From Bacteroidales bacterium (GTDB lineage: Bacteria > Bacteroidota > Bacteroidia > Bacteroidales > JAQUTK01): DNA of 64,000 nucleotides. The stretch covers positions 147,845 through 211,844 of the forward strand of contig JAQUTK010000001.1 of the NCBI GenBank assembly GCA_028709785.1. The letters run 5' to 3'. The notes beneath the pieces are model-generated. The model did no database searches. It was not told the origin of the DNA and saw only the letters and a list, made by a program, of their open reading frames with translations. A program made the translations under genes and the position numbers. Of this stretch, positions 820-37,500 are shown piece by piece; positions within the stretch are counted from its first letter, which is position 1; every line of letters starts with the position of its first letter.

Positions 820-852
820 GTGAGTATTGAATTAGAACTTAAATGTAAAGAA

Positions 853-1410
853 ATGATTTTACCGATTTATTTGTATGGGCAGCCTGTGCTACGAAAAGTG
901 GCGCAAGATATTGCACCTGATTATCCGGATTTGAAGAATTTGATAGAAACGATGTTTGAAACGATGTATAAATCGGAAGGTATTGGCCTGGCAGCTCCGC
1001 AAGTGGGTCTTTCCATCCGGCTTCTTGTGATTGATCTTACTCCCATGGCTGACGAAAATCCGGAATTCAAGAACTTCAAAAAAGTGATGATTAACGCCCA
1101 TCTTGTCGATAGTGATGGCGAAGATATACTGTTGGATGAGGCATGCCTGAGCTTGCCGGGAATTCATGAAAAAGTGGCCCGAAAGAGTAAAATCCGAATG
1201 AAATATCTTGATGAAAACGGCGTGGAACATGATGAAGTTTACCAAGGTTATTTAGCCCGTGTCATTATGCATGAATATGATCATTTGGATGGAAAATTAT
1301 TTATTGACCATGTGTCACCAATCAGAAAACAACTTATTAAGGGTAAATTGAATCTGATTGTAAAAGGGAAAGCTCGTTGTGATTATAAGAATAAACCACT
1401 TGGAAGATAA
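853..1410 (+). CDS. def: peptide deformylase
   Basis: All three PDF motifs are present: [26 protein letters not shown]. The ORF track starts at GTG 820, but ATG 853 ([13 protein letters not shown]) matches the usual Def N-terminus. Confidence 0.9.
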
Positions 1411-1415
1411 CTTTG
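1408..1415 (+). promoter_or_regulatory. Bacteroides-type -7 promoter box TAACTTTG upstream of CotH paralog 1
   Basis: Exact match to TAnnTTTG, 64 nt upstream of ATG 1479. It overlaps the def stop codon. Confidence 0.4.
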
Positions 1416-1478
1416 TCGCGAATAGAAAGAAAAATACACACGTTACTTTATAGAATCTTAAATTATTAAACTTTTAGC

Positions 1479-3995
1479 ATGAAACATTTATTACTTCTCC
1501 TTGCGGCAGTGTGCTTGTTTTGCTCTGCAGCCGAGGCAGCTCCTGTTTATTCAAAAACAACCAAGTATAGGATTGCATCTCTGAATGCTCCGGAATCAAG
1601 TGGATTGGTTGTCAGATCAACTCCTGATGGATTGAAACTGTTTTATGAACAAGATGTGACTGCCTTTGGCGATAGTGCGATGTGGCGCCTCAATAAATCA
1701 ACGGTATCTGAAAAATATTCTTTCTTTAATCCTAAAACAAAGAAATTTTTAAAGCTTATTCCTTCTGAAAGTGGAGCTACTCTGACTGTGGAATCTTCTG
1801 CTAATGCAGCGACTGATTCTACTATTTTCTTCACAATGAGTATGATTAGCAGAGGTGGAAATGCTTATTATGGAATTAAATCGACAGTAGAAGGATTTAC
1901 ATCGCAAGGATTGTCTGTCGGCGCTTCTGGAAGTCCTGTTACTCTTAGTGAGTATAGCGGACTGAAAAGCGAGTTGTTTGGTCTCTTTCAGAGCGATTCC
2001 ACACAAGTATCAGATACAGACAAGGGAGGCGATTTTTTTAAGTATCTGGATATTTGTACTATCAATGGACGCACTCCGGTCTATGACCAGTCTAAAGCGG
2101 CCTATTATTATACAATGCCTGAACGGCAGATGGGAACAGATGTTTCTAAGGTTCTCGAATATAAATTTAAAAGTGGGACTCCGTCAAATATAACTTTTAC
2201 CATTGATGGTAATCCTGTAGCAAGCGGTGAAGAGTATTCTTTTGGTAATGTTACACCTACCAAAGTGTACAAGGTTATCATCGCACAAGGAGAAAATGAG
2301 CTTGCTTACGCTTCGCTCTATTTTACAAGTATGCCGATCGTTCAGATCTTTTATACCGGTTCTGCGATAAATGGATATAGTTATACTTTAGGAAAATTAC
2401 TGGTCAATGATCCGGTTTCCAATGTGCAGCCTGATACTGTATATGCGAATTATAAGTATCGTGGAGCAACGGCTCAAAACCAACCCAAGAAGTCGTATGC
2501 AATTAAGCTTGTCGAACCGACAAAAATTGGAGAGTATTCGTATTACGAAAGCGTAGATAAAAGTTTTTTGGGGTTGAGAGAGGATAATAACTGGATATTG
2601 GATGCAATGGCTATTGATCCGGCACGCATGAGAAACAGAGTTGCAACTGATCTTTGGAATGATTTCTCAGCAAAACCGTATTATTTCTCAAAAGAACCGA
2701 AAGCTGTCAATGGTACTCGTGGAAAATTTGTAGAGCTATTTGTCAACAATGTATACAGAGGCATTTACTGTATGACAGAGAAGGTGGATAGGAAACAACT
2801 GAAACTGAAAAAGTTTGATGAAGGTGCTACCTTTATTACTCCTGACACAATTAAGGGTGCGTTGTATAAAGCGAAGAATTGGTCTTTCTCTGTTCTTTTT
2901 GGAAATACCCCTGATCAGCCGAGTGCTCTTCCTTCGCTATCCAGACTGTCTTCTTTCGATAACAGTTCTGAGTCATGGGATGGCTGGGAAGTCAAGTATC
3001 CGGATGCGGCAGATGGCGCAGCACAAGGTTGGGATACTGTAACTTATACTTATAATTTGAATGGTAAAGATACGACATTTACTTATTACAGAGCTAAAAA
3101 CTTTACAGACTGGCAGCCTTTACGTGATGCCGTTGCTTTTGCCATTTCTTCAGATTCTTTGTTTGCGGCGCAGGCTGCTGATCGTTTTGACCTGCCCGTT
3201 CTCAGAGATTATTATTTATTTATTGAACTGTTGCTTGCTACGGATAATCATGGTAAAAATATGTTCTTCTCTGTTTATGATCAGACAAAATCAACCAAAA
3301 TGACCGTCACTCCGTGGGACTTGGACGGAACATTCGGACGTCGATGGAATGGAAATACCACTTGGAGCCTTGGCGGCGGAGGCATTTTTGGCGGTGGTGG
3401 TGCTACATACGGAGCTAACCCGGATCAGGATTTCATCAGCTTTCTAAAGACGAATGAACATGCCGAACACTATCTTTTCCAACGTTTGAAAAGAAGCAAT
3501 GTCGGAGGTTTTTATGATCAGCTTAAATCAAGGTATGCTGAATTACGTCAGGACTACTTCAAACCGGAAAATCTTATCAACCGTTTCGTGCAATACAGAG
3601 ATAATTTTGTGGCGAGTGGTGCAGCAGATAGAGAAGTGAAGACGTGGTCTTCCATGACTTCTGGTATGAATTTTACAACAGAAATATCCTATCTCACATC
3701 CTGGATCAATGCGCGTATTGCTTATCTGGATGCACAATATGGATATAGTAATACGGATGAAGGAATCATGCTGACAGCACTGAAACTGAATGTTTCTCCA
3801 AATCCGGTTAGTGACCTTTTAATAATAAGTAATTTAGTACGCGGAGAAGTTGTCTCTATATACGACCAACAAGGACGTGTGTTGCACCAACAACGCGCTG
3901 ATATGGATGCCATGGCAATTGATTTTGCTGATTATGCTTCAGGCTTGTATATCGTCAAAGCCGGCAATCGATCAGAAAAGGTTATTAAGCGATAA
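1479..3995 (+). CDS. secreted CotH-kinase-like protein with T9SS C-terminal sorting domain (paralog 1, no Ig/MBG modules)
   Basis: Signal peptide MKHLLLLLAAVCLFCSAAEA. CotH-family motifs LREDNNWILDAMAIDPARMRNRVATDLWN, TEKVDRKQLKLKK, LLATDNHGKNMFF, PWDLDGTFGRRW. The last ~70 aa (SPNPVSDLL...GLYIVKAG...KVIKR) look like a T9SS Por_Secre_tail CTD. Confidence 0.8.
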   Translation: MKHLLLLLAAVCLFCSAAEAAPVYSKTTKYRIASLNAPESSGLVVRSTPDGLKLFYEQDVTAFGDSAMWRLNKSTVSEKYSFFNPKTKKFLKLIPSESGATLTVESSANAATDSTIFFTMSMISRGGNAYYGIKSTVEGFTSQGLSVGASGSPVTLSEYSGLKSELFGLFQSDSTQVSDTDKGGDFFKYLDICTINGRTPVYDQSKAAYYYTMPERQMGTDVSKVLEYKFKSGTPSNITFTIDGNPVASGEEYSFGNVTPTKVYKVIIAQGENELAYASLYFTSMPIVQIFYTGSAINGYSYTLGKLLVNDPVSNVQPDTVYANYKYRGATAQNQPKKSYAIKLVEPTKIGEYSYYESVDKSFLGLREDNNWILDAMAIDPARMRNRVATDLWNDFSAKPYYFSKEPKAVNGTRGKFVELFVNNVYRGIYCMTEKVDRKQLKLKKFDEGATFITPDTIKGALYKAKNWSFSVLFGNTPDQPSALPSLSRLSSFDNSSESWDGWEVKYPDAADGAAQGWDTVTYTYNLNGKDTTFTYYRAKNFTDWQPLRDAVAFAISSDSLFAAQAADRFDLPVLRDYYLFIELLLATDNHGKNMFFSVYDQTKSTKMTVTPWDLDGTFGRRWNGNTTWSLGGGGIFGGGGATYGANPDQDFISFLKTNEHAEHYLFQRLKRSNVGGFYDQLKSRYAELRQDYFKPENLINRFVQYRDNFVASGAADREVKTWSSMTSGMNFTTEISYLTSWINARIAYLDAQYGYSNTDEGIMLTALKLNVSPNPVSDLLIISNLVRGEVVSIYDQQGRVLHQQRADMDAMAIDFADYASGLYIVKAGNRSEKVIKR

Positions 3996-4018
3996 AACAA
4001 CTTTAATTATTTGATTTA

Positions 4019-4057
4019 CAATGCCTCCGGACTACTTCGGAGGCATTGCTGTTTTCT
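4019..4057 (+). terminator. rho-independent terminator after CotH paralog 1
   Basis: An 11-bp perfect stem (4019-4029 CAATGCCTCCG / 4038-4048 CGGAGGCATTG) with an 8-nt loop, followed by CTGTTTTCTT. Confidence 0.7.
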
Positions 4058-4105
4058 TGCTTTCAGAAAAAGAGACTTTTATGTGTTTTTTATTTGCAGA
4101 TTGTA

Positions 4106-4113
4106 TATCTTTG
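4106..4113 (+). promoter_or_regulatory. -7 promoter box TATCTTTG upstream of CotH paralog 2
   Basis: TAnnTTTG match 31 nt upstream of ATG 4144. The context TATCTTTGCCGCGCATTAA is repeated upstream of paralog 3. Confidence 0.5.
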
Positions 4114-4143
4114 CCGCGCATTAAACTGATACCCATAGTATTT

Positions 4144-7100
4144 ATGAAAAATCTTATCGTTTCCCTTTTCATATCTTTATTCTCCTTTTCGGCTGTAGCC
4201 AGTCCTGTATTTAATCCGACAAAGAAATATCGTATCGCTTGTTTGCAAGATGGAGCTCAGGGCGGCATTGTTTTAGGAAGCAAGCATGAAAGCAATTATC
4301 CATTGTTTTATTATTCAGCTGCGAATTCTGCGACGACAGATGCATATTGGTATATTATAGAAAACGAAGGAACATATTCGTTTAAAAACGCGTCAACAGG
4401 GCAGTATATTTCATACGATATAGATTATACCACAAACAGAAATTTGGGATTAGTATCAGCGTTGAATGCTGATATGACACTCTTTTCTCTGACTTTACAT
4501 TCGAATGGCGGGATTGATTATTATTCATTTAAGTCAGAAAATGATCCGACGAAATTTTTCAACAAGAGAGGCTCTGGACTGGTCGGCTTGTATAGCCCAA
4601 GTAGTGGAACCAGCAGTAATGAACTATTTGCTTTTTATGATGAAGATAATAATGTTGTTAAGGACGATCGAATAGTTGTTATTCCGCAGAAACCTGATCC
4701 TGTTGTTGCCGGACCTTTGGCAACTTACTTTACCGAGTTTACGTTGAGTGGCAAACCTTTGGTCTATAACAGTACGGACGGTTCTTATTTCTTCTCTGTC
4801 CCTTTAAATCTTATGGATGCGGATATTGAGCGCACAATACACTTCATTGCAAAGAATCTGAACGGGAATTATTCAGTGACTATCGACGGTGCGCCTCTTT
4901 TTGATGAGGATGATTATGTGTTTTCAAAAGTGACTGCCGGGAAAAAATACAGTATGGAAGTGAAGGAAGGCACGACGCTAAAGGCGACACTTGATCTGAC
5001 TTTTACAGGACTTCCTATTGTTCAGATTTACTATGATGCTGTAAATTCCAGCGAATATCTGGCCGGATATATTAAAGTACATGAACCGGATAAGAAAACT
5101 GTACCGGAATTTCTTCATTCTGAATACAAATACAGAGGTGCGACTGCTTTGGGACAGCCTAAAAAATCTTTTAATATCAAACTGAAAGATGGTTCGGATC
5201 AAAAACTCTTTCGGAGTTTCTTCGGTCTTCGTGAAGATAACAATTGGGTCTTAGATGCCATGGCTATAGATCCTGGACGAATGCGAAACCGTGTTTCAAC
5301 GGATTTGTGGAATGATTTCTCAAGATTGCCGTATCATAGTGAAACAGAAAGCAACGTAATTAATGGTACAAGGGGACAATTTGTGGAATTGTTTATCAAT
5401 GATCAGTACAATGGATTGTATTGTATGACGGAGAAAGTGGATAGGAAACAGCTGCAACTCAAGAAATATGATGATTCAACCCAGACGGTTCGCGGAGTAT
5501 TGTATAAAGCGTCAGGTTGGAACTATTCCAATTTTATGGGTCATTATGCTGATAATCAGAGTTATCCGGGAACTAATCCGCCTGATTACAATAATAGCAG
5601 TGAGACTTGGGATGGGTATGAGGTAAAACATCCTGATTTTGACGAACAGCCGGTAGACTGGAAACCGTTGTATGATCTTGTTGCATTTAATGCTACAGCG
5701 GCAGTGGATAGTGCCAGGTTTGTCAATGGATACAAATCGTACTTCGATATGCCAGTCTGGCTTGATTACTATCTGTTTATTGATCTCTTGTTGGCGACAG
5801 ATAACCATGGAAAGAATACCTTTATATATACATATGACAAGAATAGATCCAATGTAATGAGCATCGCTCCCTGGGATTTAGATGGTACCTTTGGTCGAAG
5901 ATGGGATGGATCTAACAATATAACGACTCCAAATCAGGATTTCGTATCCTTTCTTATTCAATACGAGCATGGTGAGTATGCCGTATTCAGGAATCTGAAG
6001 AAGTTTAATCCGGACAATTACAATCTGAATCTTCGCTATAGATATGCAGAGTTGCGTAAGACGTACTTTACGAAAGAGAGTCTGATGGCACGTTTCTTAA
6101 AATACAAAGAGATGTTTGACAAAAGTGGTGCCGGAGCACGTGAAACAGCAAAATGGAGTGGCTCTAATGTCAGGATTGACCTGAATGCTGAGATGACCTA
6201 TCTTTCCAGCTGGCTTGATTCGAGGCTTAATTATCTGGATGTAACGGAATTTGATATTGCTCATTTGCCGATGCAACATCCTGTGATTACGCTTTCAACT
6301 CCTAAGACGCTAACGTATGGTAATCCGGCAATAGCCAATCTGTTGGTTACAACCAATCCGAATGCACCGCTCAAGATTTCCTTCTCAAAAAGTGGAGTTG
6401 TTGAAGTGAATGGTAATACGTTAAAGATGCTGAACGCGGGATCTACTTATATGTATGTTTCTCAGGCAGCTTCTATCGGTTATTCAGCTGTCGATACTTC
6501 CTTCTATCTGCAGATTGATAAGAGAAGTCTTGTTGCAAAGGCTGATGATAAGGTGAAAGAAATTGGAGATGAAAATCCGGCGCTTTCAATGACATATGCA
6601 GGACTGGCTTCAGGTGATACCCCCGAACTAGTATTTACCAGCATGCCGACAGTTTCCTGCGCTGCAGTCGTAGATTCTCCAATCGGTACGTATCCTATTC
6701 TAATTGAAGGCGGAGTTGCTAATAGTAATTACGTGTTGAATATGCAAAACGGAACATTGACCATTAATGCCCGTAAGGTGAAAAAGACTCCCGTAATTAC
6801 GTTAGAGTTGCCTGATACGATAACCTATGGTGATGCTCCAATTGAACTTAATCCAATCTCGTCAAATACCTATTCGACTGTCACTTTATACACTTCAAAG
6901 CCGGGTGTTGTCGAAATCAAGGATTCTAAAATGAACATCCTGAATGTTGGATCCCTATATTTGATTGCTTCACAGCCTGGTAATGATATTTATGCGTCAA
7001 CAAATGCGGTTATCAAGTTCCTTATTTCAGTTCAGAAGAAGACGCTCTATGCTGTAGCTGAGGATCAGATAAAAGAACAGGGACAAGAAAATCCGTCGTT

Positions 7101-7533
7101 TACTATTCGATACGAAGGTTTGGTTCTTCCAGACCAGATAAGCAATGTGGTTACCAGTGCTCCCGTTGTTTCCTGTGATGCAAATGCAACTTCTGAAGTG
7201 GGAGAATACCCTATTCTGCTCAGTGGAGGCTCTGTTTCTGCCAACTATCAGCTAGAAAGAAAAGCAGGAGTCTTGACGATTCTTCCCAATACAGGTACCC
7301 CTGTTGAAGCCGAAACTATTCAGGTTGGAATTGCTCCTAACCCGGTACAGGATATACTGAATCTCTCTCAATTGACAACGGGGGTTCTTGTACAGCTTTT
7401 TGATTCTTTCGGCAGAGTGATTTATGTTGAAAAAGCAACGGAACCGACAATTCAAATTCGTATGGAGAGTCAATCTCCGGGTATTTATTACCTGAAAATA
7501 GGAGAGGATACTCATACGATTATAAAGAAATAG
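4144..7533 (+). CDS. secreted CotH-kinase-like protein with two Ig-like+MBG-like modules and a T9SS CTD (paralog 2)
   Basis: The preferred start is ATG 4144 (MKNLIVSLFISLFSFSAVA signal peptide), because the 4021 extension overlaps the upstream terminator and promoter. CotH motifs LREDNNWVLDAMAIDPGRMRNRVSTDLWN, LLATDNHGKNTFIY, PWDLDGTFGRRW. Two ~165-170-aa repeats (6277-6786, 6787-7281) each end in an MBG-like YG..NP...Y.GL...D......P.VSC.A...S..G.YPI...GG....NY......G.LTI. CTD APNPVQD...GIYYLKIG...IIKK. Confidence 0.8.
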   Translation: MKNLIVSLFISLFSFSAVASPVFNPTKKYRIACLQDGAQGGIVLGSKHESNYPLFYYSAANSATTDAYWYIIENEGTYSFKNASTGQYISYDIDYTTNRNLGLVSALNADMTLFSLTLHSNGGIDYYSFKSENDPTKFFNKRGSGLVGLYSPSSGTSSNELFAFYDEDNNVVKDDRIVVIPQKPDPVVAGPLATYFTEFTLSGKPLVYNSTDGSYFFSVPLNLMDADIERTIHFIAKNLNGNYSVTIDGAPLFDEDDYVFSKVTAGKKYSMEVKEGTTLKATLDLTFTGLPIVQIYYDAVNSSEYLAGYIKVHEPDKKTVPEFLHSEYKYRGATALGQPKKSFNIKLKDGSDQKLFRSFFGLREDNNWVLDAMAIDPGRMRNRVSTDLWNDFSRLPYHSETESNVINGTRGQFVELFINDQYNGLYCMTEKVDRKQLQLKKYDDSTQTVRGVLYKASGWNYSNFMGHYADNQSYPGTNPPDYNNSSETWDGYEVKHPDFDEQPVDWKPLYDLVAFNATAAVDSARFVNGYKSYFDMPVWLDYYLFIDLLLATDNHGKNTFIYTYDKNRSNVMSIAPWDLDGTFGRRWDGSNNITTPNQDFVSFLIQYEHGEYAVFRNLKKFNPDNYNLNLRYRYAELRKTYFTKESLMARFLKYKEMFDKSGAGARETAKWSGSNVRIDLNAEMTYLSSWLDSRLNYLDVTEFDIAHLPMQHPVITLSTPKTLTYGNPAIANLLVTTNPNAPLKISFSKSGVVEVNGNTLKMLNAGSTYMYVSQAASIGYSAVDTSFYLQIDKRSLVAKADDKVKEIGDENPALSMTYAGLASGDTPELVFTSMPTVSCAAVVDSPIGTYPILIEGGVANSNYVLNMQNGTLTINARKVKKTPVITLELPDTITYGDAPIELNPISSNTYSTVTLYTSKPGVVEIKDSKMNILNVGSLYLIASQPGNDIYASTNAVIKFLISVQKKTLYAVAEDQIKEQGQENPSFTIRYEGLVLPDQISNVVTSAPVVSCDANATSEVGEYPILLSGGSVSANYQLERKAGVLTILPNTGTPVEAETIQVGIAPNPVQDILNLSQLTTGVLVQLFDSFGRVIYVEKATEPTIQIRMESQSPGIYYLKIGEDTHTIIKK

Positions 7534-7553
7534 CAGAATATTAGCTATAATAA

Positions 7554-7590
7554 TAAAGGCTGTCAACTGAAGAGGCAGCCTTTGTTGTTA
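7554..7590 (+). terminator. rho-independent terminator after CotH paralog 2
   Basis: Stem AAAGGCTG (7554-7561) / CAGCCTTT (7575-7582), followed by a T-rich tail GTTGTTATTG. Confidence 0.6.
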
Positions 7591-7677
7591 TTGTATTAAT
7601 GAAAGGTTACAAAATGTGTAGTTATCATCTGAATGTCTAAAAATAGTCTAAAGTGGGTTTTATCACAAAATATTCCT

Positions 7678-7685
7678 TATCTTTG
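7678..7685 (+). promoter_or_regulatory. -7 promoter box TATCTTTG upstream of CotH paralog 3
   Basis: TAnnTTTG match within TATCTTTGCCGCATTAA, 29 nt upstream of GTG 7714. Confidence 0.5.
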
Positions 7686-7713
7686 CCGCATTAATGATTT
7701 ATTTACAACTGAC

Positions 7714-10623
7714 GTGAAACATTTTATTACTACCCTGTTAATAGTCTTATTCCCACTATTTTCCACAGCAAGCCCTGTATTTAAAACTAACACTAGTTAC
7801 CGTATTGCTTGTATCCAAGACGGCAATAAAGGCGGCATAGTTACCGGAGATTTGCATAGCAGTACTTATCCAATAGTTTATGATCCCGCTGCAGCTTCTA
7901 CTGTTGCTGATGCCTTTTGGATAATTACTGAGATTGGCACAGGATCTGGGAAATATACCATCCAGAATGCGTCAACAAAGCAATACATTTCGTATGACAC
8001 TAATTACGATCCGAAAAGAAATTTGACATTAGTAGATGCATTGAATGGTGATACGACCTTATTTAAACTTACTTTACATACAGTGAATGGTGTCGATTAT
8101 TATTCAATTTCGTCTGTTGCAGTTCCTGGCTTAGTTTTTAACCGAAGAGGGAGTGATAAGGAAAATATGGTGGGCTTTTATACTCATGACGGTTCAAGTA
8201 CCAATGAGCAATTTGCTTTTTATGATGCAAGCGGTGCGGTTGTGAAAGATGACGCTGTGACGGTCATTGTGGATGAAGGTACTGCTTTGGCTGTTTCCGG
8301 CCCGTTGGCTGCCTATCTTGGTGAGTTCTCGCTGAGCGGTAAGCCACTTGTTTATAATAAAAGATCTGGGTTCAGTACTTATTTTTTCTCAGTTCCTCTG
8401 ACTTTGATGGATAATGACGTAGAGCGTACTGTTCACTTTACGGTTAAGAATACCGCTTATACTGTAACTATCAACGGCACAAAAGTGACCGATGAGAGTG
8501 ATTATACATTTGCCGATGTCACAGCAGGAAAAAACTTCACAATTAAAATAATGAATGGAACCCGCGAGTTGCTTTCCACTACATTGACATTTACCGGGTT
8601 GCCGATCGTGCAAATGACGTATGCCTCCGTCAATGGGAATGTGTATTCTCCCGGTTTTATTACCGTTCATGAGCCGGCAAAGAATCTGACTCCGGAGAAA
8701 TTGAATTCGGAATATAAATGGCGTGGTGCCACAGCAATGGGTCAAGCAAAAAAATCGTTCAATATAAAGTTAAAAGACGCTCTTGGTGAAAAGATGCACA
8801 AGAGTTTTTTTGGTTTGCGTGAAGATAACAATTGGGTGTTGGATGCCATGGCAATTGATTATGCACGTATGAGAAACCGCGTATCAACCGATTTGTGGAA
8901 TGATTTTTCTACTCCACCCTATCAAACGTCTTTCGAGAATGGAGTGATCAATGGAACTCGTGGGCAGTTTGTGGAAGTATTTATCAATGAAGAATATTCG
9001 GGCTTGTATTGCATGACAGAGAAAGTTGACAGAAAGCAACTTAAACTGAAAAAATACGATGAAGTAACGAAACAGGTTAACGGCGTACTCTACAAATCTA
9101 CAGATTGGTCTTTTGAAGTTTTTATGGGAGGATCTAATAATGATCAACCTCAAAAAACATCTGTTCCTGATCCGATGGACTATCAGGGTGAATCCTGGAA
9201 TGGTTTTGAGGCTAAATATCCCGATTTGGGTGATGGTGAAGTCGTGGACTGGAGACCATTGTATTCAGCGGTCAATTTTACGGCCTTTTCATCCAATGAT
9301 TATTTTGCTTCAAATGTCAATCAAGCATTTGATATGCCCGTTATGACAGATTATTATCTGTTTATAGAGCTGCTTTTGGCAACAGACAATCAAGGGAAAA
9401 ACATGTACTTTTATGCGTATGACAAAAATACATCCGGTAAGATTAGTGTTGCTCCATGGGATTGTGACGGCACCTTTGGCCGAAGATGGAATGGCTCAAA
9501 AGACTGGGGATCTGGAAACTGTCTTCCGGAACAAGACTTTACAGCTTTTGTTATCGCCAATGAACATGGACAGAGCAATCTCTTTATGCGATTGATGCAG
9601 GGCAATGTCAATGGTTTCAATAACTCCTTACGGATGCGCTATGCTCAACTACGTAGTACCTTCTTCTCTCCGGAGAAGCTGATCGCTCGTTTTACTGCTT
9701 ACAACGCTATGTTTGAAAAGAGTGGCGCGGGAGCTCGCGAAGTATCCCGCTGGAACGGTTATAGTGTGAGCAATCTGAATTTTCAGTCTGAAATAAACTT
9801 CCTAACGGATTGGATCACAAGGAGAATAGCCTATCTGGATAATCAGTATGATTATGGAAGTCTGGGAAAGAAAGCTCCTCAGATAACATTGTCTATACCT
9901 GACACTATTACATATGGTGATGGTGCAGTTGATTTCACTCTGACATCCACGAACAAAGAAACTCCAATCAAATATTCATTCTCTGTTCCTGATATCTTTT
10001 CAGTAAATGAAACTTCTACCAAATTAATTCCGTTGAGAGCCGGCTCGTTATTATTGAATGTCAGTCAAGCATATAGCGATACCTATGCGAAGTTGGATAC
10101 CTCTATTTTTATGAAGGTTTATAAGAAGAACCTCTATGTAATTGCTGATAATAAGCAAAAAGAGTCAGGTACTGCAAATCCGGACTTTTCATATCATTAC
10201 GAAGGGTTACTTCCTACTGATAATCTGGCTCAGGTGTTCTCGATTTATCCGACAGTTTCCTGTGAGGCAACTGCAGAATCACCTGACGGAGAATATCCGA
10301 TTGTTGCATCCAAAGGTTTTGTGCTTGCAAGAGTGAACTATAATATTGTTCCTGTCAATGGTGTTCTGACGATTGGATCCATACAGTCCGGTGCTAAAGA
10401 TGAGACCATTTCTGTGGGCATCTATCCAAATCCTGTTTCTGATGTTTTAAGGATCAGCAATCTTGCACAGGGTACTTCTGTCATTATAGTTGACTCATAT
10501 GGAAGGATTATTTATTCCGGAAAAGCGGATGAAGAGGAAATGCAGATTGATCTCAGAGGTCGTGATGCCGGTTTATACTATCTCAAAGCCGGGGATAAGA
10601 GCTATAAGATTATCAAGAAATAA
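7714..10623 (+). CDS. secreted CotH-kinase-like protein with one Ig-like+MBG-like module and a T9SS CTD (paralog 3)
   Basis: The preferred start is GTG 7714 (VKHFITTLLIVLFPLFSTA aligns with the signal peptides of paralogs 1 and 2). The ATG 7633 extension lies upstream of the promoter box. CotH motifs LREDNNWVLDAMAIDYARMRNRVSTDLWN, LLATDNQGKNMYFY, PWDCDGTFGRRW. One Ig+MBG module at 9874-10374. CTD YPNPVSD...GLYYLKAG...KIIKK. Confidence 0.75.
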   Translation: MKHFITTLLIVLFPLFSTASPVFKTNTSYRIACIQDGNKGGIVTGDLHSSTYPIVYDPAAASTVADAFWIITEIGTGSGKYTIQNASTKQYISYDTNYDPKRNLTLVDALNGDTTLFKLTLHTVNGVDYYSISSVAVPGLVFNRRGSDKENMVGFYTHDGSSTNEQFAFYDASGAVVKDDAVTVIVDEGTALAVSGPLAAYLGEFSLSGKPLVYNKRSGFSTYFFSVPLTLMDNDVERTVHFTVKNTAYTVTINGTKVTDESDYTFADVTAGKNFTIKIMNGTRELLSTTLTFTGLPIVQMTYASVNGNVYSPGFITVHEPAKNLTPEKLNSEYKWRGATAMGQAKKSFNIKLKDALGEKMHKSFFGLREDNNWVLDAMAIDYARMRNRVSTDLWNDFSTPPYQTSFENGVINGTRGQFVEVFINEEYSGLYCMTEKVDRKQLKLKKYDEVTKQVNGVLYKSTDWSFEVFMGGSNNDQPQKTSVPDPMDYQGESWNGFEAKYPDLGDGEVVDWRPLYSAVNFTAFSSNDYFASNVNQAFDMPVMTDYYLFIELLLATDNQGKNMYFYAYDKNTSGKISVAPWDCDGTFGRRWNGSKDWGSGNCLPEQDFTAFVIANEHGQSNLFMRLMQGNVNGFNNSLRMRYAQLRSTFFSPEKLIARFTAYNAMFEKSGAGAREVSRWNGYSVSNLNFQSEINFLTDWITRRIAYLDNQYDYGSLGKKAPQITLSIPDTITYGDGAVDFTLTSTNKETPIKYSFSVPDIFSVNETSTKLIPLRAGSLLLNVSQAYSDTYAKLDTSIFMKVYKKNLYVIADNKQKESGTANPDFSYHYEGLLPTDNLAQVFSIYPTVSCEATAESPDGEYPIVASKGFVLARVNYNIVPVNGVLTIGSIQSGAKDETISVGIYPNPVSDVLRISNLAQGTSVIIVDSYGRIIYSGKADEEEMQIDLRGRDAGLYYLKAGDKSYKIIKK

Positions 10624-10642
10624 TACACTTGTATTTGTAATA

Positions 10643-10680
10643 AAAAAAGGAAGTCTTTGGTAAGGCTTCCTTTTTTGTTT
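10643..10680 (+). terminator. rho-independent (bidirectional-type) terminator after CotH paralog 3
   Basis: AAAAAAGGAAG (10643-10653) pairs with CTTCCTTTTTT (10666-10676), with further inner pairs. It has an A-run on the left and a T-run on the right. Confidence 0.7.
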
Positions 10681-10788
10681 GATAGAAAGTATCCTAAAGA
10701 TTGATAGAGCGATATTTTTGTCTGAAGAATACTTTGATATCTGTAATTCCATTATCTTTGAGGAATTATTAATTTAAAAGAGAGAACT

Positions 10789-11346: not shown

Positions 11347-11358
11347 AAACGATTATCT

Positions 11359-12327: not shown

Positions 12328-12365
12328 TAACAATTGCTTCTCAACATTTTTAATAACATGCATGT

Positions 12366-15444: not shown

Positions 15445-15469
15445 TTCATTATTATAACAAAAGATAGAG

Positions 15470-21273: not shown

Positions 21274-21284
21274 TCCTCTAAAAT

Positions 21285-29849: not shown

Positions 29850-31886
29850 TTATTCCAACCCCATGGATTTAAAAGCCGCATCAATCGGATCTGAATAAAT
29901 GACAAGACTGAACTTTGATATCAGATCAGTGGGCACTTTGCCCAGTTGTGAGATATCCACTGCCGGAATTAGTATTTTTTTTGCGCCACTATCAACAGCA
30001 ACCTGAAGATACTCACACAAATTGTCCGACCCAATGATAGCTCCACCGATACTCATTGAACCAAGAACGGCTAATTGAGGAAGTAACGGTCTTTCCGTAA
30101 TAGACGACACGATGGACAAGAATATAGAAAGTTCCAACCCTTTTAAGTTTCCAATACCATTCAGATCCGTCGCTTTTATGTGAAACTCAAAATCACTGAA
30201 TTTAGCACTTTGTGTCACTCGATTTAAATTAGAACGAACATAGTTGACCGCTTCCTTTACTTCTTCTTTAATCGCTGTACCTGCACCAAAGCCTGTATCA
30301 CTAAGTTTGCCATTGCCCGGCATCCTTTGAATGTCCATTCGAAACAATCCTTTTTGTCCATTGTCTGAGTTTTGCCCTATCGCATAAACGACCCCTGCAG
30401 GCAAGTCTCCTTCAGGAATTAATGCTTTGCCACCACTTTCGGGAACCCCTACAAAATGTTCCTCGTTGTCTTCCAAATCAATATAGCTGAAATGCACATC
30501 GTAAAACTCCATGCCACCTATTTTCTTCAACTGTTCTTTCACTCTTCTTCTTCCGACCAGCGCATATTCCAGGCAACGCCGGATATCTTCTTTGGTGTAG
30601 ATCCCATCCGGAAATAATAGCTTCACCAATCCGCTGACAGTTCGTTTTACAGCAATGGTGTCCCTTTGGTTGAGATCTTTCCCCAGACGAAAGTACTGAC
30701 CGATCGCATCAGAGAAGTTATACTTGCGAAGCACTCTTAAACACTCTGCATAATAATCAGAAATGAAGCCATACGAATCAGTAAAAAACTCAGGGCGCAT
30801 TTTAGGAATCTCCCACCCGGGCAGGTAATGATGAAAACGGTCAAAGAAAGCAGCATCAATCATCTCTTTTGGAAATGGAGACAAGAGATGACTCGTCTTG
30901 ACCAGATTCTCAATAGAACCATTGATATTACCCACAAAGACCATGGAAGCATCCGCGTTGATACTCTCTTTCCCACGGCTGAAAGAACCGTTTGCCATAA
31001 AACCTTTCATAATATGAATGCCATCCTTGTCTTTCATATTGATACCGGCTACTTCGTCAAACGCAACCACATCCCAGAGACCCACCAAACCAACCGTACG
31101 CCTACCCATATTATAAAACAGATTAGCCACAGTCGTTTGACCTCCCGAAATAAGAATCGAATTGGGCGATATCTCATCATACACATACGATTTACCGGTG
31201 CCCCGTGGACCCAACTCACACATGTTATAATTCTTCTCCACAAAAGGGATCATGCGTGCCATGAGATGCCATTTCGTTTTCTCATCCAGGTTGACAGGTT
31301 TCATGCCAACACTCCGTAGAGAAACATCAATCCATTCATCCAATGTAAAATCTTTGCGATGGATCAGATAATCGTCAAAATTAGTCTCAGGCATCTGAAT
31401 AGGTTTCAGTTCGACGATCTTAAAAGGAGTTTCCTTTGAACATTCATCATACAAATACTCCATTGTAACAATACACCAGATACCGCCTGCTAGCAGTTTC
31501 TCATATTTTTTGATATATGAATCAGCGATAACAACGTTTCTCAGATTCACATTGGATAGAAGCCCTTCGTACCGATCCAACTTCTCGTTGAGTGTCACCG
31601 ATATTTTATCAATGATCTTGTAATGCCCCTTTTCCTTTATCTTTGATTTTACTTTCTCCGATTCATCAGGCCTCACATAGTTCTCAGCAAGTATCTGTTT
31701 TACTTTCTGAACGCCTTCATTGATAGCCGTCTCGTCATCGGTCGCGCAATACATGCCTAAAAGATATTCCAATACATACACAGGCACATTGGCACCTTCT
31801 TTAATGTGCTTCGTTAGATCCTTTCTGACCACTTTGCCGGCAAAGGAATGATTGAGTTTACTATCGAGATTGTCCATATACATCAA
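29850..31886 (-). CDS. brxL: BREX type 1 Lon-like protease BrxL
   Basis: 678 aa. N-terminus DSKLNHSFAGKVVRKDLTKHIKEGANVPVYVLEYLLGMYCA is characteristic of BrxL. P-loop GPRGTGKS. C-terminal Lon-protease-like region. It is the terminal gene of the brx operon. Confidence 0.85.
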   Translation of the reverse strand: MMYMDNLDSKLNHSFAGKVVRKDLTKHIKEGANVPVYVLEYLLGMYCATDDETAINEGVQKVKQILAENYVRPDESEKVKSKIKEKGHYKIIDKISVTLNEKLDRYEGLLSNVNLRNVVIADSYIKKYEKLLAGGIWCIVTMEYLYDECSKETPFKIVELKPIQMPETNFDDYLIHRKDFTLDEWIDVSLRSVGMKPVNLDEKTKWHLMARMIPFVEKNYNMCELGPRGTGKSYVYDEISPNSILISGGQTTVANLFYNMGRRTVGLVGLWDVVAFDEVAGINMKDKDGIHIMKGFMANGSFSRGKESINADASMVFVGNINGSIENLVKTSHLLSPFPKEMIDAAFFDRFHHYLPGWEIPKMRPEFFTDSYGFISDYYAECLRVLRKYNFSDAIGQYFRLGKDLNQRDTIAVKRTVSGLVKLLFPDGIYTKEDIRRCLEYALVGRRRVKEQLKKIGGMEFYDVHFSYIDLEDNEEHFVGVPESGGKALIPEGDLPAGVVYAIGQNSDNGQKGLFRMDIQRMPGNGKLSDTGFGAGTAIKEEVKEAVNYVRSNLNRVTQSAKFSDFEFHIKATDLNGIGNLKGLELSIFLSIVSSITERPLLPQLAVLGSMSIGGAIIGSDNLCEYLQVAVDSGAKKILIPAVDISQLGKVPTDLISKFSLVIYSDPIDAAFKSMGLE

Positions 31887-31934: not shown

Positions 31935-34445
31935 TCAAGAATCAAACTCACTACTAAAAGCGATCATCATGCGGAAGGTATAGCTTTTATAGGTTTTGTA
32001 TTGGTTTGTGCCTTCGATTTGTTCCTCCATTTTCAGATAAACATCCTGTCCGTTATGCTTTGACGCTTCCCCTTTTAAAAGAAAAGTCTGCCGTTTTTCC
32101 CTTGCTAAAGCATCGTTCTCTGAACTATTGAAGCTCAGTGTGACTACGTCCGAGATTAACTGATCAGCTTCGGTATAAAAAGCAGCTCTTAGTTGACGTG
32201 GAAGAACTTTGTCAGCGATGGGCTGTTTCTGATAAAAGCTCACCGCAAAACTATTAGAGGTTATGTTTGACGAACCACTGATAATATCAATGTCAACCTG
32301 TTCGATATTGCTTTTTCGAGCTTTGTTTACCTCCAATACCGGAACGACAATTTCCTGTAAGCTCGCTCCCCCATGCACAAAGCGGCTTCCAGCCCCCGAT
32401 ATTCTTATTCTGTTGATCGATTTAGGAATGAGCACCTCTGTGTCGTCATTCAAACCAACATCCGCACCCTTCCATTTCTTCACGGAGTCATTACCTTGCA
32501 GATTCTTACCAATCACAAAACGGCGGTTGCATTTATACACCTCACCCACAGGAGTGAAATCCGTAAAGTCGGTTTCATCCAAGCGATTTTGTTGATAGAT
32601 ATATCCATGGTCAGAGGTAATAATGATATTGTTACCGTTCATATTCGTGATATGTTTCAGGAGTCGAAGAAAATTATTCAATTCATCTTCAGTAGATTCA
32701 AACACCTTATTCTCAGAAGTCTTATCATCCCCGGTTTTGTCAATGACATTGCTGTAGATGTAGATCACATTATAGGGTTTGATAAAGTCACGCCCCTCCG
32801 TACTAGCTTTCATTTTGAGAAACTCTTCCGCTGTTATTGCTATACTTCCGGCATACTTCTTTTGCAAGATCTTCGTGCGGTTTGGCGTGCCTTGCGTGCT
32901 TACTCCATCCGCAAAGACAGTCTCCGTCTTGTCGTTGTAAGTCAATGCGCTTTGTGGAAGTAAAGAAGCCATTCCTAATTGCGTGTAGGAGGGTAGGCAG
33001 CCCAGCACAGGATGAAGGATTGCCGTATATTTATCTTCCTGCAAAATCAATTCACGTAATTCGGCCGCTGATTCGAAGCGGAAAGCATCCGATATGATAA
33101 CGAAGATACGTTTCTCACTTTTCACATAGGGTTCAATCCAATAGCTATAGAATTCGCTTTGGCTTCTCACATTGTCTATTTTCCAGGAGTTCATCTTATC
33201 GACAGCCTTTTGCCAGTTGTCGCCCAGTTTGAGCAAGAATGAGTTGCCATAGGCTTTTTCAATTTGAAGAGTCAGATCTTTGAGGATGTCGCCATGTTCG
33301 CCATGCAGACTTTTAACAATGTATTTTCGATACAAGCGGTCGATTGTATTCCACTGCTTTTCGTAATTCTCAAAGCCCGATTCCGGCGACTTGACCGTTA
33401 CGTCCACTTTGCGTATTTCATCCAACAAAAGTGAGGCATTACTCAATGCGCCATAGATATTCTCATAGCTATTGTAAAAGAACTTCACTTTCCGTTTATC
33501 GATCCATTCCTGAATGATACGATTGGCGAGCGTATTCTTTGTAATACTATCCCGAAGGCTGACAATGATTTTCTTATCAATGATAGAAAAAGCATCCGAT
33601 TCAATCAAGTTCTCCACATCTGTTTTCTGAACAGCACTTTCGATGTTTAGCTCCGACTCCAATACCCCGCTCCATTCTTTAAAAAGAGGACCGGCCTTGG
33701 AGTTTTCCTTCCACCGACTGATGAAGAGATACGCATCTTTATTTAAAAGCGGATTGCCACCGGGGATCGTCCGTTTAAAACTATCGTGTATGAGGTTAAC
33801 CAGAAGATCTTTAATGGTTGGTTTATCCGATTTATAGTTGTATTTCTTCTCAATGGTTTTCCAGAGGAAATCAGACAATTTGAACTTCTCTATCGCTTTG
33901 TATTTATCTTGTTTGCCCTTTAGTTTCTCCTCAAACAAAGCGTATAAGACCTTTTCCCATTCCGGTTCACAAGCACATATAGTGCAAAGCATTTTCAAAC
34001 GAATGATGCTTTCCCTGTCTGTTTTCTCCAATAATTCTTTCAGGGCTGAAACACGGTATTGATTTGCAAAGAACTCTTCATGCTTCTGGATCAACTCTTT
34101 ATACTCTTGCGGTAAGCCCAATTCCTGAAGATATAAAGACGAAGATTCTGTATGAAACTCGTAATTAGACACCAACAAATCCAACAGCCAGTTTTCATTA
34201 TCAGCAGGTTTTGCCGCAGGTTGATAAAGTAGAAACCGTTGTTTAGGCTGTTCGACTACTATTCTGTGTTTGAGCGTAAATTCATTGTTTTCTATTTTAA
34301 GCTTTTCAATACCGGAGATCTGAATATCCTCAAATAACCCCGTCATTTCGGCTTTATCATCGTACCAAAACACTAAGCGGTGCTGTTGGAAAATCTTTTC
34401 CAACGCAGACTGTACTTTCTCATTTATGGCAAATAGATTGGACAT
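31935..34445 (-). CDS. pglZ: BREX alkaline-phosphatase-superfamily protein PglZ
   Basis: 836 aa. N-terminal RLVFWYDDKAEM and the PglZ-domain metal site IIITSDHGY. Its position between pglX and brxL fits. Confidence 0.85.
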   Translation of the reverse strand: MSNLFAINEKVQSALEKIFQQHRLVFWYDDKAEMTGLFEDIQISGIEKLKIENNEFTLKHRIVVEQPKQRFLLYQPAAKPADNENWLLDLLVSNYEFHTESSSLYLQELGLPQEYKELIQKHEEFFANQYRVSALKELLEKTDRESIIRLKMLCTICACEPEWEKVLYALFEEKLKGKQDKYKAIEKFKLSDFLWKTIEKKYNYKSDKPTIKDLLVNLIHDSFKRTIPGGNPLLNKDAYLFISRWKENSKAGPLFKEWSGVLESELNIESAVQKTDVENLIESDAFSIIDKKIIVSLRDSITKNTLANRIIQEWIDKRKVKFFYNSYENIYGALSNASLLLDEIRKVDVTVKSPESGFENYEKQWNTIDRLYRKYIVKSLHGEHGDILKDLTLQIEKAYGNSFLLKLGDNWQKAVDKMNSWKIDNVRSQSEFYSYWIEPYVKSEKRIFVIISDAFRFESAAELRELILQEDKYTAILHPVLGCLPSYTQLGMASLLPQSALTYNDKTETVFADGVSTQGTPNRTKILQKKYAGSIAITAEEFLKMKASTEGRDFIKPYNVIYIYSNVIDKTGDDKTSENKVFESTEDELNNFLRLLKHITNMNGNNIIITSDHGYIYQQNRLDETDFTDFTPVGEVYKCNRRFVIGKNLQGNDSVKKWKGADVGLNDDTEVLIPKSINRIRISGAGSRFVHGGASLQEIVVPVLEVNKARKSNIEQVDIDIISGSSNITSNSFAVSFYQKQPIADKVLPRQLRAAFYTEADQLISDVVTLSFNSSENDALAREKRQTFLLKGEASKHNGQDVYLKMEEQIEGTNQYKTYKSYTFRMMIAFSSEFDS

Positions 34446-34557: not shown

Positions 34558-37500
34558 TCATTCATCTTCCTCTTTTTCCAATCCTTTGATGGGTACCAAT
34601 ACCTCTTTCAGCTTTTGATAGTTTACTTTTACGCCATCATCCAGATCGATGCTGATCTTTTGGGTGGCAAGGGTGAAGAGGGTACGTTCATAGACTTTAC
34701 AGTCGTCAATCATCTTTCGCAGGTTGTCTATTTCTTTACTTGCAGCCACTTTCTCGCGTGGCGAGAGGTCTTCACGAACACTCAGCATGATTTGTGTTTG
34801 TCTGGCACTTTCAATTTTGCTGATGTAAGGCTGTAAGTAATCATTGAGCAACTTACTGCACGTATCGGGTTGATAGCGGTGCATATAGATCAATGCTTTG
34901 AAATGACCCTTCGGACTGCTAAACATCCAATAGATCGGACGTTTTTTGTATCGCTTGATGTGGTCGTTGTAAAAATCCTTTACAAAGTACCGGCGAATGT
35001 CTTTTGCCGCGATGTTATCTTCGATGAAACCAATGTTTTCGTTGAGCTGATCGGCACTAAAAGCCACTTTCATGAATTCACGGAAGCGACCGACGATATC
35101 ATCGGTAAACCATTCGCCATCGAGTACCGGAATAATATTATCCTCATCCGGCTGATAGGTTGGAGCTTGAACCTCCTTTAGATAATCTTGCACCGTATCG
35201 CCTTGATTGGCTAAGATAAGCCCGGGTTTATCGAGACTGTAGCGACCAAACATACAACCCACGGCATAGCTGATAAGTTGCAACATGACCGGTGCGGCTT
35301 GTATTTCCAACTGACCGTCCACAATCTTGCCTTCTTCTTGCAAAATAGTGATTTCTTCCAACGGCACATCGGGAGTCAATTCGTCCTGCAAACCATAGAT
35401 TTCGATAAACTGACGATTGAGTTCTTCTTCATTGTGGTGCAGTTGGTAAAACTTATCTGACCATTCTTTTTTATAGCTTTCAAAGGCTTTTTTTATGGAT
35501 TCGGCTTGTTGTTTGATTAGTTCGTTTTGTTGGAAGTCCCAAGAGGTTTCGCGAGAATCCCAATCTTGTTTTGATATTAATATATTTTGGTCAACATTTG
35601 GAGCCATTCCCATTTCTTCAATATCAGAGAACAGAGGCAATTTTCTAATATCCTCTGGCATTATATTAATTGTTGGATTCATCAGACTTAAAAATCCATC
35701 AACAACTTTTGTATTTAGATAACCTAATAGATTCTTTAAATCTTGTGTAGCGTGTTTCTTATAAATGTCATTTGTTGAACTTTCATAAATAAATCCCTTC
35801 TGGGAATATCGAAATGCAGATTTGCTACTTGATATTCTCGACATTTCGATACCTTCGCAAAAAGAGAACTCTACCCCCCCTAAACGTGCTTTAATACGTC
35901 CTTTTTCATCTAATGAAGTTTTAATTTGTTCGCCATTATTTTCCCAAAAAACAACGAACTCATTATTGCCATACCATCTTCTAAATAACCCTCCTTTATT
36001 GCAAGGCTTCCAATTATTATTAATAAAAGGAACTTCATGCCACAGTCTTAAGTATCTCACATTATCCCCTGTTGATATTCCATTGCGTACAATGTAAAAA
36101 TCAGAAATTTTAGTAGATTCAAATGATTCAAAACTTTTTTTGCTCAACCAATACCCAATTGGACTACCCGGAATCTTCTCGAAATCATTTTGATTAGCCG
36201 TATAAAACCAACCGCAATCAGGGTTTTGAATGGCTTCTAAGGTTTTATCATCTTTCAGTTGGGCATTGCCAAAGTCGGTTAAACGAATATAAACCCCTTT
36301 GTTTATGGGTTTGTAGTTGCCCAATACAAAAGCGGCATTCTGGACCACTTCGCCACCAATCTCTGGGAAAGCACGTGGCCCTAAATGCAACATACTTTCT
36401 ATTTGTGTATGCTCAATAAGGAAAGAACGAAGCCCTTCATAACTGCTCAAAAACATCCAACTATGTTGGTTAATCATCGCTGTTTTGCCTTGGATAGGAT
36501 TATATGCAAGGCATCGTTCCATGAAACAAGCCATTAAGTCACTTTTGCTTTTCCTGAAATTCTTTTCAACAAAGCACTTCAACTCTGCATTCATTCCACT
36601 ACTACCCATATACGGCGGATTAGTGACCACACAATGATACTTTGAACATAGGAATTCTGCTTGTCGTTTCAATATATTTTGCTGCTCCTGCCACATACTG
36701 CCTGTTTGTACCTGTATGGCATTTACTTCTTCTTGATTGATCTGAATCAAAGACCCTAAGTTGTTGGCTTGCGTCAATAGATATAGACTTAAGTCTTTGT
36801 AATCCTCTATTTTCTTACTCTTTACAACAATTGGCAAGGTTATCGATTGTTCCAGGATCTCCTCGCTTACATTTACCAATGCAATGACATGTGGCTGTAT
36901 GGGTTTACGCAGAAAACGGCTGTAATAATTGCGTGCTTTCATAGTTAAGGCAAAAGCCGCCAACTGTGCCGCACGTGGGTCAATGTCAATGCCAAAAAGA
37001 TTGTGCTGAAAAATGAGTGACGGAATTTCGTTGGTGTTGTATCCTTCTTCTTCGTAGATTTTCGCAAACAAGTCGAAAGCATATACCAACACGTGTCCGC
37101 TGCCCTGACAAGGATCCAGAAACGTTATATCGGTAATACCTTTTATCCCTTCGGGCAGAGGTGACGGAACATTGCCTTCCGGAGTTTCAATATAATAAGG
37201 CATGTGGTCACGTAATTTACTATTGGGCTTGAATGTGAGCCACAGTTTCCCCAAGGTGTTTTCCACCATATACCGCACTATCCAACGTGGTGTAAATAGC
37301 TGTGTGGCAGCCGGTATGTTTTCGGCAGAAATCTTTACATTCTTGCCCAATGCTTTAAAGACCTGATCTTTTTTGTCCGAGATATAAAACTGATATAACC
37401 ACCCGAGTATTTCTTCCTGTTGGCAATCCTCGTCCGTCATCCCGTTGCGAATATCGGCTACAATACTGTAATCGCTCAGGAGGTCATCGGGCAGGAGCAG

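Follow-up and report, generated by a model that had tools for sequence, protein, structure and literature searches.

The spore-coat protein CotH of Bacillus is an atypical Ser kinase, distantly related to Fam20C (PMC7821199). This report concerns three adjacent genes for CotH-domain proteins on a 64,000-nucleotide (nt) stretch of DNA from a Bacteroidales bacterium (contig JAQUTK010000001.1 of assembly GCA_028709785.1, forward-strand positions 147,845 to 211,844, lineage JAQUTK01), called the window below. Their products resemble Bacillus CotH (structures 5jd9/5jda and the B. subtilis protein) in belonging to PF08757, in their predicted atypical kinase fold, and in the motifs YRGA..KKS, D-x4-N and PWDxD, but the identity is only 18%. 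The Bacillus protein is a single domain of about 360 amino acids (aa). It acts inside the mother cell, which provides ATP, and its substrates are CotB and CotG, two Ser-rich proteins of the coat. The window proteins, in contrast, have 838–1129 aa, are predicted to be exported, and carry beta-trefoil, beta-sandwich, MBG and type IX secretion system (T9SS) modules. The open reading frames (ORFs) of the window (at least 100 aa in positions 1–16000 and at least 150 aa beyond) include neither CotB nor CotG.

A spore coat is not the only setting in which CotH is met. Extracellular CotH proteins occur in the cellulosomes of Clostridia and anaerobic fungi, with a function that is undefined (PMC6083626, PMC12774918, PMC12484212). 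For instance, CseP (Cthe_0044) and Cthe_0239 are found in C. thermocellum and Ccel_1101 in R. cellulolyticum. The window proteins can be likened to these by architecture and setting: in both cases a surface-displayed CotH domain would stand among carbohydrate-active proteins of anaerobic organisms associated with plants or the gut. However, the cellulosomal proteins of Gram-positives and fungi are held on scaffoldins through dockerin and cohesin, whereas those of the window, from a diderm member of the Bacteroidales, end in a T9SS type A C-terminal domain (CTD). The partner modules differ as well, being LTD and Fn3 in the cellulosomal proteins and trefoil and MBG in the window proteins.

The invasins CotH2 and CotH3 of Mucorales belong to the same Pfam family and are also exposed at the cell surface. 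They are eukaryotic ligands for host cells, anchored by glycosylphosphatidylinositol, and unlike the window proteins they have no lectin, MBG or T9SS modules. Large variable proteins of Bacteroides diversity-generating retroelements have been described with CotH-like motifs beside carbohydrate-binding motifs (bioRxiv 10.1101/2024.11.15.621889). Single-copy homologs of about 770–800 aa in Paludibacter, Dysgonomonas, Paraprevotella, Prevotella and Alloprevotella form one family with the window proteins, with the same order of trefoil, sandwich, CotH and CTD and 40–48% identity. Unlike the window array, these are mostly lone genes without MBG modules. A literature search found no paper joining CotH with T9SS in bacteria, in agreement with an earlier note, made from this DNA sequence alone, that T9SS-dependent CotH proteins have no assigned role.

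Our analysis suggests that the three genes encode lectin-targeted, catalytically competent surface or secreted CotH kinases, exported as T9SS cargo and carried on stalks of differing length; we put the probability of this at roughly 0.5. What the locus establishes directly is a domain architecture, a set of predicted folds, the conservation of catalytic positions, and the age and conservation of the array.

Domain architecture of the three proteins

Three consecutive + strand ORFs lie at window positions 1479–3995, 4021–7533 and 7633–10623. The genes and the domain layouts of their products are as follows.

1479..3995, + strand: gene 1, start ATG 1479, 838 aa
4144..7533, + strand: gene 2, probable start ATG 4144, 1129 aa; ORF open upstream to 4021
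7714..10623, + strand: gene 3, probable start GTG 7714, 969 aa
Gene 1 protein: signal peptide aa 1–20; divergent beta-trefoil about 21–185; beta-sandwich about 190–310; CotH 326–750; type A T9SS CTD 772–838; no MBG
Gene 2 protein: signal peptide aa 1–19; beta-trefoil; beta-sandwich; CotH 329–698; module plus MBG_2 units 706–873 and 876–1046; CTD 1063–1129
Gene 3 protein: signal peptide aa 1–19; beta-trefoil 20–185; beta-sandwich 195–315; CotH 336–708; module 715–805 plus MBG_2 808–886; CTD 903–969

The true starts are most likely ATG 4144 for gene 2 and GTG 7714 for gene 3, because the ORF extensions 5′ of them span the terminator of the previous gene and the promoter box of the gene itself. 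The lengths of orthologs (833, 1127–1131 and 967–973 aa) fit genes 1, 2 and 3 as started at 1479, 4144 and 7714. In GenBank the protein of gene 3 (923 aa) is started at a TTG within the gene, which corresponds to residue 47 of the 969 aa, and it therefore lacks the signal peptide as well as the first strands of the trefoil. In the Logan calls, genes 2 and 3 (1170 and 996 aa) begin too far 5′, across a terminator or promoter. The earlier note had described three genes that share a signal peptide, an N-terminal domain, a CotH domain and a T9SS CTD; this is borne out by the ORFs and by matches to Pfam and NCBIfam, and every peptide motif that it quoted is found in the three-way alignment.

The CotH core and its catalytic positions

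The central CotH domain is matched strongly by the Pfam hidden Markov model (HMM) in all three proteins. PF08757 gives E values of 1.7e-45, 2.3e-43 and 6.4e-49 for genes 1, 2 and 3, with scores of 156, 149 and 168 bits against a cutoff of 23.8, and positions 2–322 of its 322 positions are covered. The core, taken as residues 300–729 of gene 3, was modeled with AlphaFold2 at a predicted local distance difference test score (pLDDT) of 92.3 and a predicted template modeling score (pTM) of 0.92. A Foldseek search of the PDB with this model placed the B. cereus CotH kinase 5jd9/5jda at the top (E 2.9e-17; target-normalised template modeling score (TM) 0.79), followed by weaker matches to PI3K, CtkA and HipA-type kinases. 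The kinase-like core proposed in the earlier note thus agrees with the predicted fold, and the sequences have the catalytic Asp, Asn and Asp in place.

The relationship is distant at the level of sequence. A search of the PDB with the single sequence of gene 3 matched only the T9SS CTD 7pzj and missed CotH; a profile of 65 family members reached 5jd9 weakly (E 0.002), and in that alignment YRGA..(E)KKSY and PWDxDxTWGR are in register. It was the fold comparison that decided the match. The Asp of FDGFVHN in 5jd9 lies 23 residues from the Asp of PWD, the same spacing as from D228 to D251 of B. subtilis CotH. The equivalent residues of the window genes, in TDN(H/Q)GKN and PWDxDG, are 25 residues apart. 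Mutation of either D228 or D251 inactivates B. subtilis CotH (PMC7821199). Because of the profile alignment to 5jd9 and the spacing between the two residues, D558 and D583 of gene 3 are identified as the equivalents of D228 and D251. The predicted catalytic residues are the following.

Gene 1: D589, N594 and D614; Lys pair K337/K338
Gene 2: D553, N558 and D578
Gene 3: D558, N563 and D583; Lys pair K346/K347

The catalytic Asp, the Asn and the metal-binding Asp of the WD motif are kept in all three copies, and judging from these positions none of the copies looks like a pseudokinase. Both Asp residues, the Asn five positions after the first of them, the Lys-Lys pair and the RGA motif are also invariant in the 65 homologs, at about 40% identity.

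Within the family, two inserts in the CotH domain are peculiar to gene 1 and its orthologs, which come from at least five related genomes.

3000–3110 of the window, aa about 512–540: gene 1 insert A, 27 aa long, following PDAADG
3330–3400 of the window, aa about 625–647: gene 1 insert B, a Gly-rich loop directly after PWDxDGTFGRRW

To judge from the alignment, insert B lies near where the activation or substrate loop of the kinase would be.

A predicted beta-trefoil precedes the kinase

The earlier note had recognized an N-terminal domain of about 170 aa without assigning it to a family. Its presence stands, and structure prediction now supplies an assignment. Residues 20–330 of gene 3, modeled with AlphaFold2 from 62 homologs, give a beta-trefoil followed by a beta-sandwich, with a mean pLDDT of 90.6. 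When this model was compared with the PDB by Foldseek, the best match was the CBM13-Fn3 portion of the cellulosomal arabinoxylanase CtXyl5A (5g56). It is followed by dozens of beta-trefoil lectins at TM 0.72–0.83 (target-normalised), among them ThreeFoil, Mitsuba, BEL, LBL, SeviL and the HA33 lectins. The trefoil model and the matches to lectin folds therefore identify the N-terminal domain as a predicted ricin/CBM13-type beta-trefoil.

Sequence profiles point the same way less strongly. RicinB_lectin_2 (PF14200), with a cutoff of 25.6 bits, gives sub-threshold scores of 19.0 bits (E 2e-3) for gene 2 and 20.5 bits (E 8e-4) for gene 3; this Pfam HMM has no match in gene 1. Four homologs (P0039, P0075, P0100 and P0118) exceed the cutoff at the same position. 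A profile search of the PDB matched the ricin B lectin protein 9s11 with an E value of 1.3e-4.

Putative stalk modules and export signals

The 0/2/1 distribution of MBG modules over genes 1, 2 and 3 that the earlier note had read from the sequence is reproduced by Pfam. MBG_2 (PF18676) is above its cutoff in two stretches of gene 2 (103.7 bits) and one of gene 3 (51.8 bits), and in none of gene 1. Each unit consists of a segment of about 90 aa followed by MBG_2. The units are only 33–47% identical to each other, and therefore no unit is a recent internal duplication. The segment before MBG has no Pfam match at E of 1 or below, nor a significant PDB match with a profile of 12 sequences. A custom HMM of this module cross-matches the repeats of a homolog (P0029) that bears a weak Big_2 annotation, and on this ground the label "Ig" for the segment is plausible.

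The signal peptides were read from sequence features, without a dedicated predictor. Each has a basic residue, a hydrophobic core (mean Kyte-Doolittle value 1.9–2.4) and an AxA-type site, in the pattern MK(H/N)-core-A/S-x-A|(A/S)P, and the predicted cleavage sites are AEA|AP, AVA|SP and STA|SP in genes 1, 2 and 3. At the other end of the proteins, the T9SS sorting domains named in the earlier note are above cutoff in every copy by two models: NCBIfam TIGR04183 (type A sorting domain) scores 35.3, 28.9 and 35.3 bits against a cutoff of 23, and Por_Secre_tail PF18962 scores 37.5, 35.6 and 41.3 bits against 27. The matches end no more than one residue from the C-terminus in all three genes. The family profile also matches the CTDs of the solved T9SS cargo structures 7pzj and 8glk. 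No further CTD cargo was found in the window.

Distribution and gene neighborhoods of the family

A protein search collected 744 proteins at E of 1e-10 or below, most of them with CotH and Por_Secre_tail. Those that bear a name, the three of the window included, are entered either as "CotH kinase family protein" or as "T9SS C-terminal target domain-containing protein". A scan at one genome per species gave 257 relatives, and 80 loci were fetched. They come from Paludibacter, Dysgonomonadaceae (many of them termite-gut bins), Candidatus Symbiothrix, Paraprevotella, Prevotella, Prevotellamassilia, Alloprevotella and Bacteroidaceae, in human, rumen and other guts. With custom domain HMMs, the order trefoil, sandwich, CotH and CTD was found in essentially every complete gene of these loci. 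The window proteins thus belong to a large family that is already annotated automatically, and the novelty that the earlier note claimed for them was overrated: their architecture runs across the 80 Bacteroidales loci, a GenBank annotation exists, and extracellular CotH is known from cellulosomes. What is less common is the array and its stalks. The 87 sources examined contain some duplicate loci. Two to three adjacent copies occur in 10 of these sources, a count that includes duplicates of the window's lineage, and besides this lineage only a few others have MBG stalks.

The neighborhoods of the homologs are heterogeneous and often concern glycan use or other T9SS cargo. In Paludibacter sp. 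221, genes for glycoside hydrolase (GH) family 43, BcGHD and GH88 lie just upstream of the homolog, with a weak PorV match 9 kb off, and in a Paludibacteraceae metagenome-assembled genome (MAG) the homolog is near a cluster of SusD, GH31 and GH35, a polysaccharide utilization locus (PUL). A beta-galactosidase of the form ricin-GH2-CTD adjoins the homolog in six loci. M60-like peptidases, leucine-rich repeat proteins and ricin-domain proteins are neighbors in Paraprevotella and allied loci (four to five). In a subfamily of Prevotellaceae and Bacteroidaceae, mostly of about 960–1000 aa, CotH is accompanied by a multi-pass membrane protein with DUF6057 and a PD40 beta-propeller lipoprotein in 13–14 loci (e.g., L056 at 9914–14483 and L045 at 351–5996); the DUF6057 gene is directly downstream of CotH in L056. 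From this gene order, CotH, DUF6057 and PD40 look like a conserved three-gene unit. When a conserved operon partner was sought across the 80 loci, DUF6057 with PD40 was the sole strong one, and it is absent from the window. Nor does the window hold any of the other partners of the homologs named above.

Three records labelled as Firmicutes, titled Clostridium sp., Clostridiaceae and Christensenellaceae (L014, L018 and L048), contain family members with T9SS CTDs. They are probably mis-binned or mislabelled Bacteroidales contigs, not T9SS cargo of Gram-positives.

History of the array

The earlier note had called the array a tandem triplication. Three adjacent paralogs are indeed present, but the identity matrix and the tree set gene 1 apart, and a single triplication event is not upheld. 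In a neighbor-joining tree of 666 aligned columns, genes 2 and 3 are sisters (57% identical), and gene 1 is on a separate long branch with its own orthologs. A Paludibacter protein is 48% identical to genes 2 and 3, more than gene 1, which is 43% identical to them. The CotH core is 52–57% identical in all three gene pairs. The trefoil and sandwich, however, are 56% identical between genes 2 and 3 and only 25–32% between gene 1 and either of these. By these comparisons gene 1 is an older, separate lineage, in which the kinase core has changed much less than the lectin-type domain.

The whole triplet is kept in another Bacteroidales MAG at about 80–85% protein identity. The flanks are shared with it too, namely ruvX and def on one side and LemA, an M48 peptidase, an amidohydrolase, HtpG, a patatin and PHO4 on the other. 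Since triplet and flanks are both conserved, the array is old and has been maintained. Two more recent origins were considered and rejected: one-step triplication is ruled out by the position of gene 1 outside the clade of genes 2 and 3, and recent gene conversion or duplication by the best DNA repeat between copies, which is 260 nt at 71–72% identity.

In the related MAG, valS lies just upstream of ruvX, def and the three CotH genes. An independent three-gene tandem array of the family is found in Dysgonomonadaceae bacterium PH5-43 (L006, 2455–10323), likewise beside valS; its first copy has three Big_2-like repeats in place of MBG units. Going by these gene orders, the position near valS may be ancestral.

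Proposed function and alternatives

From the domain content we infer an export route, a surface location, glycan binding, extracellular kinase activity and a role of the stalks. The proteins would be exported by the Sec pathway through a cleavable signal peptide and would then fold in the periplasm. The outer membrane would be crossed by the type IX system, which would recognize the type A CTD, and the proteins would end up attached to the surface or released. There the trefoil (ricin/CBM13-like) and the sandwich would provide lectin-type targeting to a glycan-bearing ligand, and a phosphotransfer dependent on Mg or Mn and a nucleotide would follow onto a nearby extracellular substrate. Targeting followed by phosphotransfer seems the most likely mechanism, because the trefoil and sandwich are fused to a CotH domain with the catalytic Asp-x4-Asn and the WD Asp in all copies. 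The module plus MBG units, numbering 0, 2 and 1, would be rigid spacers between kinase and anchor, and as such would present the same chemistry at different distances from the cell. The diverged targeting domain of gene 1 and the two loops by its active site suggest that its ligand or substrate differs from those of the other two copies. The glycan-degrading genes and T9SS cargo genes that often adjoin the homologs also speak for lectin-targeted kinases.

Several points weigh against lectin-targeted kinases of this kind. The supply of nucleotide outside the cell is a weakness of every catalytic model. The window's own copies stay below the Pfam cutoff for RicinB_lectin_2. No T9SS machinery (SprA/Sov, PorV, PorU, PorK-N) was found among the ORFs scanned in the 64-kb window, and the neighbors of the array there are housekeeping genes (ruvX, def, LemA, an M48 peptidase and HtpG) that hint at no function. 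The literature search returned no activity, substrate or localization data for any T9SS-linked CotH protein. Finally, the spacer role of the MBG units is one that we only infer.

Alternatively, the proteins may be catalytic without being protein kinases, acting in the processing of extracellular polysaccharides on a glycan or on a small or polymeric non-protein acceptor, or performing some other nucleotide-dependent transfer. The kinase domain is after all fused to a CBM13-like trefoil, and the homologs recur beside GH and PUL genes and ricin-GH2 T9SS cargo. The Fam20 kinases of the secretory pathway include a xylose kinase, Fam20B. CotH is a distant relative of this group (PMC7821199), and CotH modules with no defined function occur in bacterial and fungal cellulosomes (PMC12774918). 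Nevertheless, the sole characterized CotH enzymes phosphorylate Ser in proteins (PMC7821199), the gene neighborhoods are heterogeneous, and that of the window itself is housekeeping. We regard this alternative as unlikely.

A little less credible still are non-catalytic adhesins, in which the CotH domain would serve as a binding surface, as proposed for the CotH invasins of Mucorales. The makeup of the proteins does resemble that of surface adhesins, with its lectin-type domain, MBG repeats and T9SS anchor, and there is little ATP outside cells. Both a structural and a regulatory role have been suggested, without proof, for the cellulosomal CotH proteins (PMC12484212). However, the D-x4-N motif, the WD Asp, the KK pair and RGA remain invariant across the homologs, at about 40% identity, and in all the paralogs, which is hard to explain without catalysis. 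Moreover, the GRP78-binding peptide of the Mucorales proteins, MGQTNDGAYRDPTDNN, has no counterpart in the three window proteins.

It is very improbable that the kinase does its work prior to export or in the course of it, on itself or on other T9SS cargo in the periplasm or at the secretion machinery, and not in the environment: T9SS cargo folds in the periplasm ahead of translocation, and tandem paralogs could modify each other, but the periplasm is not known to contain ATP either, a lectin-type domain and variable stalks better fit an outward-facing role, and the array has no conserved partner gene.

Returning to lectin-targeted CotH kinases, a bolder form of this proposal can be stated tentatively, and we think it more doubtful than the general one. 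The proteins would be true ecto-kinases of gut Bacteroidales, displayed by T9SS, guided by their lectin-type domain to glycan-bearing targets and phosphorylating these outside the cell, with the paralogs covering different ligands and different reach by means of their diverged trefoils and their stalks of 0, 1 or 2 units. Candidate targets would be host or dietary glycoproteins, polysaccharides or other microbes. If true, it would also explain what the extracellular CotH modules do in cellulosomes. For bacteria, kinase chemistry outside the cell would be unusual. Extracellular CotH has been catalogued for about 20 years in cellulosomes, and now in many gut Bacteroidales, with its function undefined (PMC12774918). 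The locus introduces no new principle; its value is that of a convenient test case for an open and modest question. It offers a compact natural comparison in which one kinase core is combined with targeting domains of two kinds and with stalks of three lengths, and culturable relatives with single-copy homologs exist in Paludibacter sp. 221 and Dysgonomonas sp. 216.

Transcription signals of the array

According to the earlier note each copy is a transcription unit of its own, with a TAnnTTTG box and a hairpin terminator. The features that bear on this are listed below.

1408..1415, + strand: gene 1 box, TAACTTTG, overlapping the def stop codon
4019..4048, + strand: hairpin after gene 1, 13 bp, -21.6 kcal/mol, z -5.5, then a U-tract; resembles an intrinsic terminator
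4085..4143, + strand: putative gene 2 promoter region, with TATCTTTG at 4106–4113, in a block nearly identical in the ortholog locus (MAG with proteins about 85% identical)
7548..7590, + strand: hairpin after gene 2, -21.9 kcal/mol, z -6.9, with a U-tract; terminator-like
7678..7685, + strand: gene 3 candidate -7 box, TATCTTTG
10643..10676, + strand: hairpin after gene 3, an A-tract, a 15-bp stem and a U-tract, -19.2 kcal/mol, z -5.6

The terminators fared well: a hairpin with a U-tract follows all three genes (-19 to -22 kcal/mol, z -5.5 to -6.9). In the related MAG hairpins are kept after genes 1 and 2, the two positions checked, despite sequence change; the sequence after gene 1 is different there and still forms a hairpin. 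The boxes are indeed at 1408, 4106 and 7678. As a statistical signal TAnnTTTG was dropped, with 64 matches in the window against 56 expected.

The three copies differ in how far separate transcription can be argued, and they are graded here by the conservation of promoter blocks across species and the positions of the hairpins. Separate transcription of gene 2 is well supported. About 65 nt 5′ of its start codon, with TATCTTTGCCGCGCATTAAAC, are nearly identical in the related MAG, and the adjacent upstream terminator has diverged; this conservation across species is the sole backing for the putative gene 2 box. For gene 3 a unit of its own is plausible. TAnnTTTG is present in both genomes, as TATATTTG a few bases off in the ortholog locus, with the sequence shifted and changed, and a conserved block lies upstream at about 7604–7650. 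For gene 1 it is doubtful. The box at 1408 is absent from the ortholog locus of the related MAG, and no hairpin was found between def and gene 1. Since the box is not conserved, gene 1 may be co-transcribed with ruvX and def, or may be read from another promoter.

Other genes of the window

Window positions 18268–25902 hold genes for a PHO4-type phosphate transporter, an OmpR-type response regulator, a histidine kinase, a calcineurin-like metallophosphoesterase and a GH76 glycoside hydrolase. Of these, PHO4 is 7.6 kb downstream of the CotH array. Patatin and PHO4 keep their synteny in the related MAG; no connection with the CotH array has been established.

Further downstream, a complete type 1 BREX (bacteriophage exclusion) defence system occupies 29850–44727 on the - strand.

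29850..31886, - strand: BrxL
31935..34445, - strand: PglZ
34558..37989, - strand: PglX methylase
39950..43498, - strand: BrxC
43500..44111, - strand: BrxB
44086..44727, - strand: BrxA

Between PglX and BrxC lie a gene for an AAA_15/AAA_21 ATPase (38616–39899) and an ORF of 212 aa with a weak HNH match (38003–38641); this insertion may be an embedded accessory defence module. Beyond the BREX genes, positions 49939–56965 encode TamB (1525 aa) and an Omp85/POTRA protein similar to TamA, with a G+C content of 0.47–0.49 against 0.34–0.45 in the rest of the window.

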